Of a DNA stretch of 64,000 nucleotides, positions 53,552 to 60,848 are shown piece by piece. The stretch comes from Trueperaceae bacterium. GTDB lineage: Bacteria > Deinococcota > Deinococci > Deinococcales > Trueperaceae. Every line of letters starts with the position of its first letter. Position 1 is the first letter of the stretch. The translations under genes and the position numbers were made by a program. The notes under the pieces are model-generated. The model saw only the letters and a program-made list of their open reading frames with translations, had not been told where the DNA came from and did no database searches. The stretch spans positions 736,001 to 800,000 of the forward strand of contig JAXHNB010000006.1 in NCBI GenBank assembly GCA_034520945.1. Direction: 5' to 3'.

Positions 53552-55819
<2,268 letters not shown>

Positions 55820-56162
55820 GAAACGGGGTTCCTCCTAGCGTGGGATGCTTGCGCAAGTGTCCATTAAAGCATACCCGCACCCCTTCCCGCAACTTGGCGG
55901 TGGGGGGCGGAGCCCGTCATGGCACGATCGTGCCTGCCACCAAAGCCTGTCGCACGCGGGTAAACTTCCTCCACCCCGCGCGCCCGAACGACCCGCTCAC
56001 CGCACCCATTCCAAGGGCCCGGGCTGCCGGGCTGCTGGAACACGGCGCCCCCTCGACCTGCGCCCTCGTGCTGCGCCGCGCCGCCACCTCGCAGCTGCCC
56101 GAGCCGCCTTGGCCGTCTCGTAGAACGCGGCCCTCGACCCTGCGCGCGCCTCAAGAAAAGGT

Positions 56163-56193
56163 TCGAGCCCCGCGTGGGAGGCGCGGGACTCGA
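56163..56193 (-). terminator. Hairpin downstream of the TPR gene (probable terminator on the minus strand)
   Basis: TCGAG-C-CCCGCG...CGCGGG-A-CTCGA stem; followed on the minus strand by ACCTTTTCTT. Confidence 0.5.
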
Positions 56194-56320
56194 CATTCGG
56201 AAGAGAATGGGAGCGAGGCGATTTACAAGGGGAGGTTCACCTCGAATCCACGACTCTAGTTTAGGGGGGCGTTCTTACACAATTCTTACAGGGGGCTGCA
56301 GGTCTCTCGGCATCAAAGAA

Positions 56321-57532
56321 CTATTGAAGGAAGTCCGCTGGTATTGCGTCCGCGACGTTCATTTCCTTGTCGAGGAATCGAGCGTTCTGCAGAGTCTTGG
56401 CAAGTGCGCGGAGCGTGTCCATGTCAGCTTCGTACGAAGGGTCTTCTAACTGCTTCTTTAGGTCACATACATGCAAGAGGACTTGACCGTATTCTTGCAG
56501 GAGCCCCATATCGCTGAATGCCGTGGCCGTTTGCTCCAGCTCCCGAATTGCATGCACATTCGTGTACAGCCCGCGTTTACGGAACACGAGGATCTCCCTA
56601 AAGCGATAGGCAAGGCGATCCGACATATCACCAATTAAAGACTGCCCTCGGTTTAGGCAGTGCAATGCTTCGTCGTTGTCAGAAGTCGAAAGTAGGGTCG
56701 CTAGCGCAAGCTGCGACAAGAACTCTTCGTAGACGACTTGTGTCTTTTGCGCCATATCGATGGCCAAGCGGTAGTGACGGACCGCACGTTGGCTGTGCCC
56801 TTGAATCCATGCGATTTCTCCCTGTAGCCACTTACCTTCGACGCGCATCGCTTGAGGGACAGAATCCGAATCAAGCTCGGTCAGCGCCTCCGAGGCTTCT
56901 CGGAGCCGCCCTTGTGCGACAAGTACGGTCGCCCAACGCATACGAGACTTAAGGTGTTGGAGCCCGGTTGTCAATTGCATCCCTCGTTCGAGGAACCAGA
57001 GTGCCCGCTGGGTACGGCCGACCCGACCGTGAAGAATCCCCAACTGCGCCAAGATGGAGGGGGCCAGAAGTTCGAACTCCGGTAGGCCTTGCAGGCGTCG
57101 CCACGCTTCTTCCGCGAACCGCAATGCCTCACGAATGTCTCCATTAGTCTCTTCGTGGATACTCTTAACCCGCATGAAAAATACCTGGTCGTAGCTCGTT
57201 AGACGAGCGAAGTCAACCTGCTGCAGTTCGTCTGAAGCACGTTCCGCATTGTTCGTCATACGAAGTAGGTGAGCCAGATTGACGCGTGCAGCTTGTTGCC
57301 CCTTCGCAATGGCTCGCTCAAAGGCCTCCTGCGCCTCATCATCTTGAACGAGCTGGAAGTGGCACACCCCTAACCATCGATCGTCGTCGGCCGTGGGGTT
57401 GGAGATGTCATGGTAGGCGTTGATCCCTTTGGTGAAATCCTCTAAATAGACCCAGGCTTGCACAACGCTCTCCAAGGACGCTTCGGGAAAGCTCAAAGCA
57501 ACTTGATCAAGGGCATCCTTAAGGTCTGTCAC
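56321..57532 (-). CDS. Stand-alone TPR-like helical repeat protein (403 aa)
   Basis: Long ORF in AT-richer DNA with TPR-like patterns (WLGVCHFQL..EAQEAFERAI; LAQLGILHGRVGRTQRALWFLERG; LQGEIAWIQGHSQRAVRHYRLA). Confidence 0.8.
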   Translation of the reverse strand: MTDLKDALDQVALSFPEASLESVVQAWVYLEDFTKGINAYHDISNPTADDDRWLGVCHFQLVQDDEAQEAFERAIAKGQQAARVNLAHLLRMTNNAERASDELQQVDFARLTSYDQVFFMRVKSIHEETNGDIREALRFAEEAWRRLQGLPEFELLAPSILAQLGILHGRVGRTQRALWFLERGMQLTTGLQHLKSRMRWATVLVAQGRLREASEALTELDSDSVPQAMRVEGKWLQGEIAWIQGHSQRAVRHYRLAIDMAQKTQVVYEEFLSQLALATLLSTSDNDEALHCLNRGQSLIGDMSDRLAYRFREILVFRKRGLYTNVHAIRELEQTATAFSDMGLLQEYGQVLLHVCDLKKQLEDPSYEADMDTLRALAKTLQNARFLDKEMNVADAIPADFLQ

Positions 57533-57672
57533 CGGTGCATACCCTACTGCACAATGGACGCCTACCCCTGCTTTGAGTCTCGTTTAGACCGTGAAGCAGA
57601 TCTTCGGCTCGGAACTCGGCGACTGTGTTTTGTGCGCACTCCTTGCTTGCAACAGGTCGTGAAAAACCCCGC

Positions 57673-57701
57673 TTGACCCCTTGCACGCCGCATGCTAACT
57701 T
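57673..57701 (+). promoter_or_regulatory. Sigma70-type promoter with extended -10
   Basis: TTGACC (57673-78), 17-nt spacer, TAACTT (57696-57701) preceded by TGC. Confidence 0.65.
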
Positions 57702-57707
57702 GTATCC

Positions 57708-57926
57708 AATCGCTGGTGGCTGGTTGGGAGGCCAGGCTAGCGAGGGTTTTCCCGGCAGCTTGTTGTTGTCGGCGTTCGGAAGAGATCGGGAGCTTGGAGG
57801 AGGCTTGAACCACACCCCAAGCAAGGCCTGATCAGAGTGAGTGCGTTTGCGCTCGAGTAGTTGGAGCTGGGAGGCTCCAACAGCGCTGTCCAATTGAGGT
57901 TGGGAGGCCTCGGATAGCGTGTTTTT
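57708..57926 (+). ncRNA. Candidate structured non-coding RNA or leader with three U-GGGA-G loops
   Basis: Six consecutive hairpins found by eye, several with G-U pairs that favour the + strand; the last is followed by GTTTTT; starts right after the promoter. Confidence 0.55.
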
Positions 57927-57960
57927 GGCACCCAGTTGGGTGCGGGAAGAGGATGGGAAA

Positions 57961-58062
57961 ATGAAGAACACTGGAAAGCGGATTTTCACCGTCGCGGCTC
58001 TGTTTGCACTCGTCAACCTTCCGTTGTTGGTGCTCGCAGGGGTGCACGTCTCGCAACGCTAA
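57961..58062 (+). CDS. 33-aa small peptide MKNTGKRIFTVAALFALVNLPLLVLAGVHVSQR (signal-peptide-like precursor)
   Basis: GAGGA RBS 7 nt upstream; basic n-region, hydrophobic h-region, V-L-A possible cleavage site; own terminator. Below the ORF-track length cutoff. Confidence 0.7.
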   Translation: MKNTGKRIFTVAALFALVNLPLLVLAGVHVSQR

Positions 58063-58081
58063 GCCATACACTTCTGTGTCT

Positions 58082-58119
58082 GCCCGCGGTCAGCGCATGC
58101 TTGACCGCGGGCGTTTTTT
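58082..58119 (+). terminator. Rho-independent terminator after the small peptide ORF
   Basis: GCCCGCGGTCA...TGACCGCGGGC 11-bp stem followed by GTTTTTT. Confidence 0.85.
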
Positions 58120-58334
58120 GGTAATGACGCCAAGAGTTGCGTCAGGGCTCACAGTTGCAGCGTAGTATGGACGTGCTATACACTCTCTGGCTGCACTCGG
58201 ACGGTTCCATGTAGGTAGGGCCAAGAAATCGAGGAAGCGATGTTCCGGGGAAGCAACTTGCGCCACAGGTTTTACTGCAAGTCAACTATAGCGATCTGGG
58301 AGTGAACTGTGCGAGGTATTGAGGTCCCAGAGAA

Positions 58335-60848
58335 ATGAAGGCGGAAGGTGCGTTCGGGTCCTCGTGGTTTGCACGACAGATGACGCAGCTTCGCGTTGGG
58401 GTGAGCCCATATTTAGTTCAGAGCCGGCCAAGATTCGGTACCAACTACCTGTTCCATGCCATGGCCTTGTCGCCAGGCGTCCTGTGGATTGAGCTTGAGG
58501 CTAACGACGGTCCAATTGCCATTGGAAATCGACTCAGCTATGCAATGCAGCGTTCTACAGGCACGAATCTATTTGGACTTGGGATGCCGTATCATTATGC
58601 CCTCGGTTACCTGGTTGGCCTACAGGATGAATTTGGACCTATTACACTTGTGGTTAGTAACGCACAGGGCCACGCCTGGTTCATTGAGCACGTTATTCGA
58701 CTCGCACGAATGTCCGATGGCGCTTTGATGATCATTGCGAACGGGCACGAGGATGAAGGCCCCTGGTCGCAGTTGCTTCAGTCGGACGATGTCCGTGTCC
58801 TTTATGAGTCCGATCTTGCTGTGCGGCCAGATGAGGTACCTAGTCTGTTGCACGGTGTAGATGTGCCAGAGCACATTGCACGCGAATTGTCGATGAAGGG
58901 CACCGAGGAAGGGCTTGCGTATGAAGAGGTGCTTGCGACGATCAACCTTGCTACGGGGCATCGTCCGCCGCCGCGACCTTCACCACATGGTGTCGTGTCA
59001 AGTCAGCGGTCGCCCTTAACGAAGAATCAGCAGTTGGAAGTTCTTATTCAGGAAGAACGTTGGATTGATGCGTTTGAACTTGCGACGGTCCGCGATGACA
59101 AGACTGCACTGCACATCCTCACAGAGTCGGCTGATGCGTACTTTGCGAGAGGCGAACCAGGGCGCCTATTACCCCATGTGCGAAAACTCGTAAGTCAGAA
59201 CCCTGAACACGCGAACGCCATGTATTGGCTATTTCAAGCGTATGTGGCACTGGGTCGCCTGAACGAAGTAGAGCGGCGTGTTGAGAGATTCCTAAAGCGC
59301 CACCAGGCACCCACGTTGGCGGCGTCATATGCGTCAGTGGCGCGCCCTCCGAACGCTGTGACCATGGCTGTCCAGGCAGTGGACCGGCTAAGAGTACCCG
59401 AAACGCTGGCGTCGTTGGGCTTCTTGTGGGCGCACAACGGAGAGGCTGCCCGTGGCATAAGTCTCCTTAGGGAAGCTTTCGAGGGCTACCGTCAATCCCA
59501 TCGGTACCACAGGGCCATACAGTTAGCCAATAGCATCGGGTCGTGCTACGTGAGTCTCGGTGACCATCGGCGAGCACTGTATTGGGGAAGATGGGGGATG
59601 GCGGAACTCTACCGTCGAGGAATACGCGAGGAATTGCTGAGGCTATCGTGTACAAATCTTGTTGCTTACGCATCTCTTTTGGTAGGCGAGCTTCAAGAAG
59701 GTCAAGAACTCTTGCGCTGGGTCAAGATCACGCCGAGTGACGATTCGCTTCCACCAACGTTGGAAGGCTTAGTTACGACAATTGGTGACTACAATGTCGT
59801 AGAAGGCAACGCAGAAACGGCACTATTCTGGTATCGCCGGATTTATGCACAGTATTTTGACCGATTACCAGGATATGCGACTCAGTTGGCGGTACGTGGT
59901 CTTTTGCATGCAGGCAGGCTTGACGAAGCTAAGGTTTGCCTGAATGTAGCGTTGGAGGCGGTCGCGCCTCCTGATTCCACGCAACAGGCCAGGCTAAACG
60001 TAGTCCGAACGGTCATCGAAGCATCGTACCCAGAGGGTGCGTTTCCGGAAGAGCGCGCACTTCTGGAACATGAAAGTGTTCAAGAGGACGCTGTCCTCAG
60101 GGCTGAGTATCTAATTGCACGATCGTCGATTCAATATCGGTCCGGTAATCTGGCCGGTGCCGAAGCAACGCTTAGCGCCCACAGAGACGTATTTGGTAGC
60201 TTAGGGCGTTCAGGTTGGGTGCTTTTGGGACCGCCTGGTGCGCCTATTGACACGCTACGCTCGCTAATCGGTATTGCGCGACCAGCTGAAAGGCACCTAC
60301 TCGTACTCAATGACAGAAGCCTCCTGAAGGAGGGTCATCCCGAGCGTCTGTCGAGGCGTTATGCCGAGCTCTTGACCCTACTTTTGCTGAATCCGGAAGG
60401 GCTTACCGGAGAGGCTTTATTGCTCGAATTGTACGGTGATGCGGGAAGCCTAAGCTCTTTGAAGGCCATAGTCTCGCGTTGCCGAAAGGTCGTTGGAATT
60501 GACTCGGCACCGTACCGTCTAGCTGAGCAACTCACTTCCGACCTAACCGACATCGAGGCGCACCTCCGCGCGGGGCGATTGCGTGAAGCGCTCGAGTTGT
60601 ACAAGGGGCCCTTGCTGCCGGAATCCGAGGCGCCGGGCATTCAGCGGGCGCGGGAGCGGATCGACGAGGCATTGCGGCAGGCCGCTCTGCACGCCAACGA
60701 GGGCGAACTCGTATTGCGTCTCGCGCGGAAGTGGCCGGACGACCTGGAACTGTGGGAGCGTGCGGCGGAGCTGTTCCCCAAGAGCGATCCGACGTACCCG
60801 TTGGTGCGTGCACGGGTACGCCGGATTCGTGGGGAGTGGGGGTTGTAG
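58335..60848 (+). CDS. Large regulator: divergent MalT-like N-region, TPR-like middle, C-terminal winged HTH + BTAD-like domain
   Basis: TPR-like helices (LASLGFLWAHNGEAARGISLLREA; ANSIGSCYVSLGDHRRALYWG); C-terminal LSRRYAELLTLLLLNPEGLTGEALLLELYG...LKAIVSRCRK and ALELYKGPLLPESEAPG. No intact Walker A seen. Confidence 0.75.
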   Translation: MKAEGAFGSSWFARQMTQLRVGVSPYLVQSRPRFGTNYLFHAMALSPGVLWIELEANDGPIAIGNRLSYAMQRSTGTNLFGLGMPYHYALGYLVGLQDEFGPITLVVSNAQGHAWFIEHVIRLARMSDGALMIIANGHEDEGPWSQLLQSDDVRVLYESDLAVRPDEVPSLLHGVDVPEHIARELSMKGTEEGLAYEEVLATINLATGHRPPPRPSPHGVVSSQRSPLTKNQQLEVLIQEERWIDAFELATVRDDKTALHILTESADAYFARGEPGRLLPHVRKLVSQNPEHANAMYWLFQAYVALGRLNEVERRVERFLKRHQAPTLAASYASVARPPNAVTMAVQAVDRLRVPETLASLGFLWAHNGEAARGISLLREAFEGYRQSHRYHRAIQLANSIGSCYVSLGDHRRALYWGRWGMAELYRRGIREELLRLSCTNLVAYASLLVGELQEGQELLRWVKITPSDDSLPPTLEGLVTTIGDYNVVEGNAETALFWYRRIYAQYFDRLPGYATQLAVRGLLHAGRLDEAKVCLNVALEAVAPPDSTQQARLNVVRTVIEASYPEGAFPEERALLEHESVQEDAVLRAEYLIARSSIQYRSGNLAGAEATLSAHRDVFGSLGRSGWVLLGPPGAPIDTLRSLIGIARPAERHLLVLNDRSLLKEGHPERLSRRYAELLTLLLLNPEGLTGEALLLELYGDAGSLSSLKAIVSRCRKVVGIDSAPYRLAEQLTSDLTDIEAHLRAGRLREALELYKGPLLPESEAPGIQRARERIDEALRQAALHANEGELVLRLARKWPDDLELWERAAELFPKSDPTYPLVRARVRRIRGEWGL

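Follow-up and report, generated by a model that had tools for sequence, protein, structure and literature searches.

The window analysed here is a 64,000-nucleotide (nt) stretch of the genome of a Trueperaceae bacterium (assembly GCA_034520945.1, contig JAXHNB010000006.1, positions 736,001 to 800,000 of the forward strand; coordinates below count from the first base of the window). Our subject is a structured RNA leader of roughly 250 nt on its plus strand (57708-57960), recognised by its fold, its covariation and its place between a promoter and a ribosome-binding site (RBS) with an open reading frame (ORF). That ORF (57961-58062, plus strand) encodes a 33-amino-acid (33-aa) peptide and is conserved in public genomes. 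The leader-peptide promoter lies at 57673-57701 (plus strand), a sequence motif at a conserved position in relatives, and the transcript would end at an intrinsic terminator at 58081-58120 (plus strand), which a terminator scan called as a 13-bp stem followed by TTTTTT. Divergent from the leader is the gene of a 403-aa tetratricopeptide repeat (TPR) protein (56321-57532, minus strand; Pfam TPR families). Directly downstream of it, on the same strand, we predict the gene of a small RNA (sRNA) of ∼98 nt (56154-56251, minus strand) with its own promoter (56258-56290, minus strand; direct repeats and a -10 element read from the sequence). The preliminary description of this DNA had noted a highly structured candidate RNA upstream of the peptide gene; that finding is real, and by the comparisons below it leads to a new predicted sRNA-leader pair conserved across Trueperaceae. 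The element is not the stand-alone sRNA of 220 nt that had been considered, since the leader shares one conserved transcription unit with the promoter, the RBS, the 33-aa ORF and the terminator.

Structure and conservation of the leader

The promoter read from the sequence consists of a -35 element, TTGACC (57673-57678, plus strand), and, after a 17-nt spacer, an extended -10 element, TGC-TAACTT (57693-57701, plus strand, with TAACTT at 57696-57701), and transcription is expected to start near 57708-57710. A TTGACC-N17-TAACTT promoter had been proposed before; the motif is present, though a consensus promoter scan returned no promoter-like sites and did not call it. Of 41 distinct leaders, 40 show the arrangement TTGNNN-N16-18-TANNNN just 5' of their first hairpin, and the remaining one has no upstream sequence.

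All six hairpins that had been proposed (H1 to H6, here P1 to P6) were recovered within 1 to 3 nt in the minimum free energy (MFE) fold of the plus strand. P1 (57710-57743), supported also by covariation, is an extended hairpin at the 5' end and carries the loop U-GGGA-G (GGGA at 57726-57729). P2 (57752-57772) lacks a GGGA loop in this genome, whereas its equivalent in one clade of relatives bears the loop GU-GGGA-GC. The long hairpin P3 (57784-57833) and the hairpin P4 (57838-57855) both have equivalents in the folds of relatives. The same U-GGGA-G loop closes P5, a 9-bp hairpin (57860-57881, GGGA at 57869-57872), and P6, a two-tier hairpin (57883-57920, GGGA at 57902-57905) that is followed by GUUUUU (57921-57926). 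A seventh plus-strand hairpin, P7 (57928-57943), stands directly 5' of the RBS and differs in sequence in each relative.

In the comparison with shuffled sequence that the preliminary description had called for, the region folds more stably on both strands: the plus strand of 57708-57926 reaches -98.5 kcal/mol against -81.9 ± 4.8 kcal/mol for dinucleotide shuffles (z = -3.47, with 1 of 200 shuffles as good), and the minus strand reaches -68.2 kcal/mol (z = -2.83). The sequence TGGGAG occurs at 922 sites on both strands of the genome, only 11 of which are closed by a stem of at least 6 pairs, and 3 of these 11 fall within this 180-nt stretch. At gathering scores, Rfam 15 matched only a tRNA in the window and left the leader unmatched, in keeping with the earlier view that it belongs to no described RNA family; an Rfam scan by E value of 57400-58400 returned five matches, all far under gathering scores and none of the CsrB/RsmZ type.

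The GUUUUU after P6 could point to a transcription attenuator, a reading that had been put forward, in which P6 and the U-run would stop transcription short of the peptide gene as long as no alternative fold takes their place. The strong, two-tier P6 with its U-run suits this reading in the genome at hand, but only 3 of the 41 homologous leaders have a T-run of at least 4 behind their last GGGA hairpin, and an attenuator is therefore not a feature of the family. Since the terminator scan did not call P6 with its U-run either, and neither the MFE nor the centroid folds contain a competing antiterminator, we regard an attenuator as highly improbable.

The leader is a tandem duplication of one unit that comprises a GGGA hairpin, a second hairpin and a box of the form UUCGGAAGAG-N-UGGGAG. 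Box 1 (57775-57792, plus strand; UUCGGAAGAGAUCGGGAG) has this form, is conserved in long leaders, and its 3' half makes up the 5' strand of P3. Box 2 (57945-57958, plus strand; GGAAGAGGAUGGGA) is the ribosome-binding region and ends 3 bases 5' of the AUG; together with P6 and P7 it repeats the 5' unit. R1, a covariance model of that unit made from P1, P2 and Box 1, matched the 5' unit itself at 57707-57795 with 39.2 bits and the 3' unit at 57880-57962 with 25.9 bits (E = 8.6e-07). It also found a third copy at 56161-56216 (21.7 bits), between the TPR gene and rpsA, and weaker extra copies of the unit lie in six other loci, 2.1 to 2.5 kb upstream of the leader and beyond the TPR gene. R1 matched 33 of 128 genomes of Trueperaceae.

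Five leaders (L006, L007, L022, L031 and L038) are short, about 140 to 190 nt, with a single unit before the ribosome-binding box, and look as if the duplication never happened or was later lost. When the frames after Box 1 and after the distal copy were compared by eye for a small ORF, their stops differed in place between genomes.

To collect homologues, a degenerate pattern of the first nine codons of the ORF was searched in a species-level genome collection and gave 41 loci, one of them a chance match; in 41 related genomes, the matches of a DNA search fell mainly on the small ORF. Each pattern locus has a leader of 140 to 270 nt with one to four hairpins (of at least 4 pairs) closing on a GGGA loop. 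These hairpins keep a conserved spacing, at about -230, -200, -90 and -59 from the AUG, while the sequences of their stems are quite different. Folding z averages -3.33 over the 40 distinct leaders and is below -2 in 33 of them; their plus-strand energies are 20 to 40 kcal/mol lower than those of the reverse complement.

Covariation was measured in two alignments, one of 24 5' modules (A3) and one of the P1 and P5 hairpins of 35 long leaders (A2). In A3, 88.2% of the cells are paired against 75.4% in shuffles (none of 500 as high), 14 of 20 pairs show compensatory changes, and the covariation score is 0.381 against 0.191 in shuffles, a value that none of 500 reached; controls in which the alignment was slid gave at most 0.11. 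In A2, 83.0% of the cells are paired against 73.1%, with a covariation score of 0.352 against 0.209 (none of 500 shuffles as high), and slid controls across both alignments stayed at or below 0.17. By hairpin, the inner stem of P1 is 97.1% paired across the 35 leaders of A2, all 8 stem pairs of P5 show compensatory changes in the same 35, and 6 of 7 pairs of P2 do so in A3. On the plus strand, the U-G pairs closing the loops never vary (24 of 24 in A3). A whole-leader RNAalifold run on a MAFFT alignment found only two anchored hairpins because the variable parts were misaligned.

By these comparisons the leader is a structured RNA whose strand is the plus strand. The surmise that one loop on three different stems betrays selection on RNA structure is borne out by the homologues, in which the structure covaries while identical loops, constant in the 40 distinct leaders, sit on covarying stems. 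UGGGAG occurs 132 times in the 40 leaders, on average 3.3 copies in each, whereas CUCCC averages 0.08. At 80 of these 132 sites the MFE folds leave GGGA entirely unpaired, in 79 cases within a hairpin loop; the overall unpaired fraction is 0.34.

The sRNA gene and its promoter

The distal copy of the unit (R1 match at 56161-56216, on the opposite strand) is best described as an sRNA gene that can be read on the minus strand only, where the alignment gives it a promoter, hairpins and a terminator of its own. Since it reads only on that strand, its RNA would carry the complement of the leader motif and not the motif itself. In 12 aligned genes the order on the minus strand is TGTAAGA-N4-TGTAAGA, N9, a TAnnnT -10 element, N7 and a conserved 5' end. 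The body of the predicted sRNA consists of a stem-loop with the C-rich loop CCUCCCC (SL1), a single-stranded linker, CUCCCAUUCUCUUCCGAA, a G+C-rich stem-loop with the loop CCUCCCA (SL2) and a U-tract. SL2 is the terminal hairpin and is followed by a T-run in 12 of 12 genes. It is paired in 100% of the cells, with compensatory changes in 7 of 10 pairs and a covariation score of 0.377 against 0.253 in shuffles (none of 500 as high), and its 8 G-U cells would be A-C mismatches if the element were read on the plus strand.

A model of the sRNA gene, called R2, matched once in its own genome and matched 87 of 128 Trueperaceae genomes, in 28 of 36 genera, with tandem or multiple copies in some (up to 7 matches). 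In a phylum-wide sample it matched 9 of 12 Trueperaceae as against none of 138 genomes of three other families. CCUCCCA is present in 14 of 16 sRNA model matches, two matches being cut by contig ends, and in the MFE folds of the 14 full-length sRNAs 28 of 40 UCCC sites are unpaired. An Rfam scan of 55820-56330 at E values up to 10 returned no match. The G-rich multi-loop leader and the C-rich sRNA are accordingly two RNA families absent from Rfam 15. We found no literature on small RNAs of Trueperaceae, nor, judging by titles and the openings of abstracts, any relevant to those of Truepera; among the part of the matches for Deinococcus that was judged in the same way, none described this pair. 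Two larger genomes of one genus (G013 and G058) have 7 and 6 R2 matches, scattered over the chromosome. The one locus inspected from the multi-copy genomes (L060) showed no peptide pattern or leader-like element nearby.

The sRNA promoter has two copies of a heptamer, TGTAAGA-N4-TGTAAGA (56290-56273), with an 11-bp period, then a 9-bp spacer and the -10 element TAAACT (56263-56258), and this layout is conserved in the 12 aligned genes. The direct repeat is unique in the 3.47-Mb genome, in which the single heptamer occurs 11 times. Activators of the Streptomyces antibiotic regulatory protein (SARP) family are described as binding direct repeats 11 or 22 bp apart that overlap the -35 region, with the 3' repeat 8 bp from the -10 element (PMC10936776). 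Judged against that description, the sRNA promoter has a SARP layout, with a spacing of 9 bp rather than 8. The AfsR-afsS system of Streptomyces is alike in its 11-bp-period repeats over the -35 region, its TPR-bearing SARP-type regulator and its small downstream product (PMC10936776). It differs in that the product here would be a non-coding RNA, the domain order is TPR then SARP and the binding is putative.

Regulators of this kind are encoded in the locus itself, in this genome as a candidate. About 30 nt separate the stop codon of the TPR gene from the sRNA promoter, and most homologues of the TPR protein (such as L027:3475-5136) are about 550 aa long, with a SARP-like winged-helix domain at the C terminus. 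The structure model of the extra C-terminal 170 residues of these homologues has a predicted local distance difference test score (pLDDT) of 86.5, and its best structure matches are EmbR (E = 2.7e-4) and AfsR on the afsS promoter (E = 6.8e-4, TM score 0.60), with OmpR/PhoB DNA-binding domains further down the list. The 403-aa TPR protein of the window is without this domain, which is missing in its genus. A sequence search of the Protein Data Bank (PDB) with this protein gave no match, and a search with the profile of the TPR family gave generic TPR matches only. Beyond the peptide gene lies the gene of an 837-aa protein (58335-60848, plus strand) with TPR repeats and a C-terminal BTAD domain (Pfam, 25.7 bits against a cut-off of 22.1). 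A Trans_reg_C match just before the BTAD domain is below threshold (E = 0.038), and a PDB sequence search with the C-terminal part of the protein gave no match; by its Pfam assignment alone, this protein is a candidate SARP-type regulator. We infer that the sRNA is driven by a SARP-type activator encoded in the locus.

The 3' end of the sRNA gene lies ∼300 nt upstream of the start codon of rpsA, on the same strand, and the same is seen in several relatives. Standing directly 3' of the TPR gene, the sRNA could arise partly as a 3' untranslated region product, or it could influence rpsA.

Complementarity between the two RNAs

Because the sRNA gene and the leader units are alike as DNA and are read on opposite strands, the two are complementary as RNA. 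The leader loop sequence UGGGAGG is the exact complement of the sRNA terminator loop CCUCCCA, and taken together the C-rich SL1 loop, the linker and the terminator loop of the sRNA match the loops and boxes of the leader. The linker of the sRNA can pair with 57771-57804, around Box 1, through 15 contiguous pairs and 6 more, with a duplex energy of -44.3 kcal/mol against a background of -24.4 ± 3.1 kcal/mol in random windows of 440 nt. Of 6081 seeded sites across both genome strands, only the antisense of the sRNA itself scores better than Box 1 (-40.5 kcal/mol against a mean of -19.8, standard deviation 4.2), which leads the non-self sites. The linker can also pair with Box 2 through 14 contiguous pairs, one of them G-U, in a duplex of -26.3 kcal/mol that ends 3 nt before the AUG. 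A general likeness between Shine-Dalgarno and anti-Shine-Dalgarno sequences does not explain the pairing, since the shared stretch, UUCGGAAGAG, is not a Shine-Dalgarno sequence. Two cruder searches were set aside: an unrestricted duplex search gave unrealistic whole-length hybrids, and a search for exact 11-mer complements was uninformative in this GC-rich genome, returning 283 runs of which the best were chance GC-rich 13- to 14-mers.

The two RNAs also occur together. Among 46 genomes with the peptide pattern (at most 2 mismatches), 41 have the sRNA, the other five being fragmentary assemblies that are 79 to 95% complete. Duplexes between cognate sRNAs and leaders average -40.1 kcal/mol, as against -35.1 kcal/mol for non-cognate ones, and the cognate leader ranks 1 to 3 of 14 for 10 of 16 sRNAs. 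Both the complementarity and the co-occurrence are established by sequence comparison.

The best reading of the leader is that it serves as a dedicated base-pairing partner, target or sponge, of the sRNA encoded ∼1.45 kb upstream on the other strand. Between these two roles we lean slightly towards the leader as the target of the sRNA, with expression of the peptide as the output. The sRNA would be transcribed from its two-heptamer promoter by a SARP-type activator, and the two RNAs would meet by kissing of their loops; pairing would then extend at Box 1 and could cover Box 2. The most likely outcome would be repressed translation of the peptide or a destabilised mRNA. What is proposed here includes that the two RNAs are transcribed at all and pair inside the cell, as well as which way and with which sign the regulation works and which protein is the activator. 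Read in this way, the identical loops on unrelated stems would be accounted for by a complementary RNA encoded nearby, and no protein would be needed to explain them.

Several observations weigh against this reading. The Box 2 duplex ranks only 439 of 6081 genome-wide, and by energy alone it is not exceptional. For 5 of 16 sRNAs the cognate leader ranks 9 to 12 of 14, and the related genomes are not independent, so the cognate-duplex signal holds at the level of clades only. Co-folding of whole sRNA and leader beat all 25 dinucleotide shuffles in only 4 of 14 pairs and in this genome gave -17.7 against -17.2 ± 5.6 (z = -0.1). The program cannot score kissing loops, and a shuffled C-rich RNA still pairs with a G-rich leader; taken as it stands, the co-folding test gives no support to sRNA-leader pairing. 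Forcing Box 1 to be single-stranded lowered the accessibility of the RBS (by more than 0.1) in 7 of 35 leaders, raised it in 1 and left it unchanged here. A relay model, in which pairing at Box 1 would free the 3' strand of P3 to mask the RBS, is not supported, given that accessibility fell in those 7 of 35 leaders only. No public run recorded as RNA was found to contain the stretch, and the transcription of both RNAs is therefore predicted from sequence alone. The complementarity could also be, in part, a relic of an inverted duplication.

The distribution of the sRNA is a further point of this kind. It is present in 46 genomes without the peptide pattern and multi-copy in some (7 and 6 matches), and no leader-like partner lies within about 4.5 kb in 5 loci that have the sRNA and lack the peptide. 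The sRNA, more widespread than the peptide and with no partner nearby in these loci, therefore probably has other partners or a wider role.

Such other targets would be expected if the direction were reversed, that is, if the leader, or a short form of it ending at P6 and its five U residues, acted mainly as a sponge for the C-rich sRNA and controlled its other targets. Leaders offer 3 to 5 G-rich sites each, with UGGGAG averaging 3.3, the strongest site genome-wide is Box 1 rather than the RBS, and in this genome GUUUUU after P6 could end the short form. RosA of Bacillus subtilis sponges RoxS and FsrA, and both RosA and RsaI of Staphylococcus aureus have G-rich regions for C-rich sRNAs, two of them in RosA (PMC8216469). 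The likeness is that one RNA offers several G-rich stretches to which the C-rich parts of an sRNA are complementary. In the locus studied here, these stretches belong to the leader of a conserved protein-coding gene; this leader is encoded next to its partner and consists of duplicated units mirroring the sRNA, and its sponge action is putative. However, the T-run after P6 recurs in only those 3 of 41 leaders and is not called as a terminator, and the second box serves as the RBS of a conserved ORF, a sign that this ORF is what is controlled. We consider it rather unlikely that the leader acts mainly as a sponge.

The failure of co-folding to single out the sRNA-leader hybrid could also be taken in favour of a protein, with the UGGGAG loops and boxes as sites for a sequence-specific RNA-binding protein after the manner of CsrA and the distal element as a further platform. 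CsrB/RsmZ sponges and CsrA-regulated leaders display repeated GGA-containing hairpin loops, with one site at the RBS. The leader resembles them in its three U-GGGA-G loops, with one to four such hairpins per leader in relatives, and in presenting the same 6 to 8 nt in loops on varied stems with one copy overlapping the RBS. It differs in that the genome has no CsrA gene that we could find, Rfam gives no match and a complementary RNA is encoded next door. A search with PF02599 gave no match in this 97.4%-complete genome and was positive in 3 of 14 control genomes. The distal element, moreover, reads as a gene on the minus strand only, by its promoter, its terminator and its G-U pairs. There is also no sign of a regulon of GGUUGGGAGRCC hairpins: the genome has this consensus at 10 sites, of which the leader accounts for two, and none of the other eight, whose context was not inspected, was seen beside a second leader-like element. 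A protein of this kind is improbable in our estimate. The earlier idea of a CsrB/RsmZ-like protein sponge accordingly falls for want of CsrA in a 97%-complete genome, while the notion of a sponge may still be right for RNA, the loops being complementary to the C-rich loops of the neighbouring sRNA.

Among known C-rich sRNAs, the UCCC-motif sRNAs LhrC1-5 of Listeria monocytogenes are alike in their tandem or multiple copies (here in some genomes), in transcription through a dedicated activator (here a presumed one) and in pairing with a G-rich, Shine-Dalgarno-like target (here predicted) (PMC4132741). The sRNA of this locus has no sequence or Rfam relation to them and belongs to another phylum. 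Its motif is longer, CCUCCCA plus CUCUUCCGAA, its promoter has SARP-type direct repeats, and its partner presents the complement on 3 to 5 structured loops of one leader and not just at the RBS. The Cuckoo, CcsR and NfeR1 sRNAs of Alphaproteobacteria likewise have anti-Shine-Dalgarno-like C-rich loops, in their case with the motif CCUCCUCCC, and are often in tandem and associated with small ORFs, according to the parts of the reports cited (PMC4615179, PMC8034643); no model of these families matched here. We regard the predicted sRNA as an analogue, and not a member, of the LhrC, RsaE/RoxS and cuckoo families, and the leader likewise does not belong to the RNA families of RosA and RsaI.

The locus would constitute a compact module of a SARP-type promoter, an sRNA and a leader of duplicated, decoy-like units before a small, exported-looking peptide. 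We know of no dedicated multi-loop partner leader for the Cuckoo, CcsR and NfeR1 sRNAs, and to our knowledge the UCCC/GGGA logic has so far been described only from Firmicutes and Alphaproteobacteria; if the pairing holds, it would extend to a high-GC lineage of extremophiles. The predicted kissing-loop pair is well defined and suits tests by compensatory mutation.

The peptide and the genomic setting

Exactly 33 aa are encoded in 40 of the 41 pattern matches. The peptide starts with MKNTGKRIF, of which MKNTGKR is basic, and continues with a hydrophobic core, a small-x-A motif and a seven-residue tail, G-xxx-SQR (together A-G-xxx-SQR), whose tripeptide differs by lineage (VHV, LDV, MTA, AFA, NLS and others). 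It matched no Pfam or NCBIfam family. Its layout suggests a Sec signal peptide to which a short tail is attached, and recalls exported signalling pro-peptides.

A small peptide with a basic N terminus and a hydrophobic core, a long, stable leader and a nearby RNA partly complementary to that leader and its RBS also fit a type I toxin-antitoxin system, in which the peptide would be a membrane toxin and the sRNA its antitoxin. The pAD1 par (Fst) system makes a similar use of repeats and of a terminator loop, and the likeness speaks for such a system. However, the peptide gene is a single-copy gene in a conserved chromosomal setting (43 of 47 loci are syntenic), neither patchy nor multi-copy, 46 genomes contain the sRNA but not the peptide pattern, and the small-x-A and G-xxx-SQR end of the peptide is more reminiscent of a signal peptide carrying a short tail. 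A toxin-antitoxin system therefore seems to us doubtful at best.

The exported-looking peptide also admits a wider view, which we offer with little confidence, that the locus is a peptide-signalling circuit with an RNA feedback arm made up of an exported pro-peptide, a TPR-SARP receptor, the sRNA and the leader. The pro-peptide would be exported by Sec and its C-terminal heptapeptide G-xxx-SQR, with the lineage-variable xxx, would be the signal. On sensing the peptide, a TPR-SARP receptor would turn on the direct-repeat promoter of the sRNA, which in turn would form kissing contacts with the G-rich leader loops and shut off the pro-peptide mRNA, or would itself be soaked up. If true, the locus would amount to a quorum module of Deinococcota, RRNPP-like or AfsR/AfsS-like, whose wiring runs through an sRNA-leader pair. 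We know of no peptide-signalling circuit of such a kind in the phylum.

The host genome comprises 3.47 Mb in 10 contigs, with about 71% G+C and an estimated completeness of 97.4%. The locus stands out in it as a block of ∼4 kb with 52 to 56% G+C (about 56300-60500) that spans the TPR gene, the leader, the peptide gene and most of the gene of the 837-aa protein. Since the locus is conserved across genera, recent transfer of this block is not an obvious explanation. The peptide gene is present in one copy in this genome, and its setting beside rpsA and TPR genes is kept across 12 genera; a homologue of the TPR protein occupies the equivalent place in 43 of 47 loci, duplicates of one genome being counted. 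A GerE/LuxR regulator, recognised in the protein family scan, follows beyond the gene of the 837-aa protein.

The same peptide-leader locus is found on contigs filed as Hyphomonadaceae, Thiopseudomonas, Rhodothermales, Ferruginibacter, Bacteroidales and Actinomycetota (L008, L009, L028, L034, L038 and L048). Because some of them are identical to Trueperaceae loci (the leader of L009, for example, is that of L005), this suggests that they are mis-binned.

The rpsA gene, for ribosomal protein S1, lies at 53552-55819 on the minus strand. The S1 protein of this genome is 755 aa long, and long acidic, alanine-rich N- and C-terminal extensions flank its S1 repeats.

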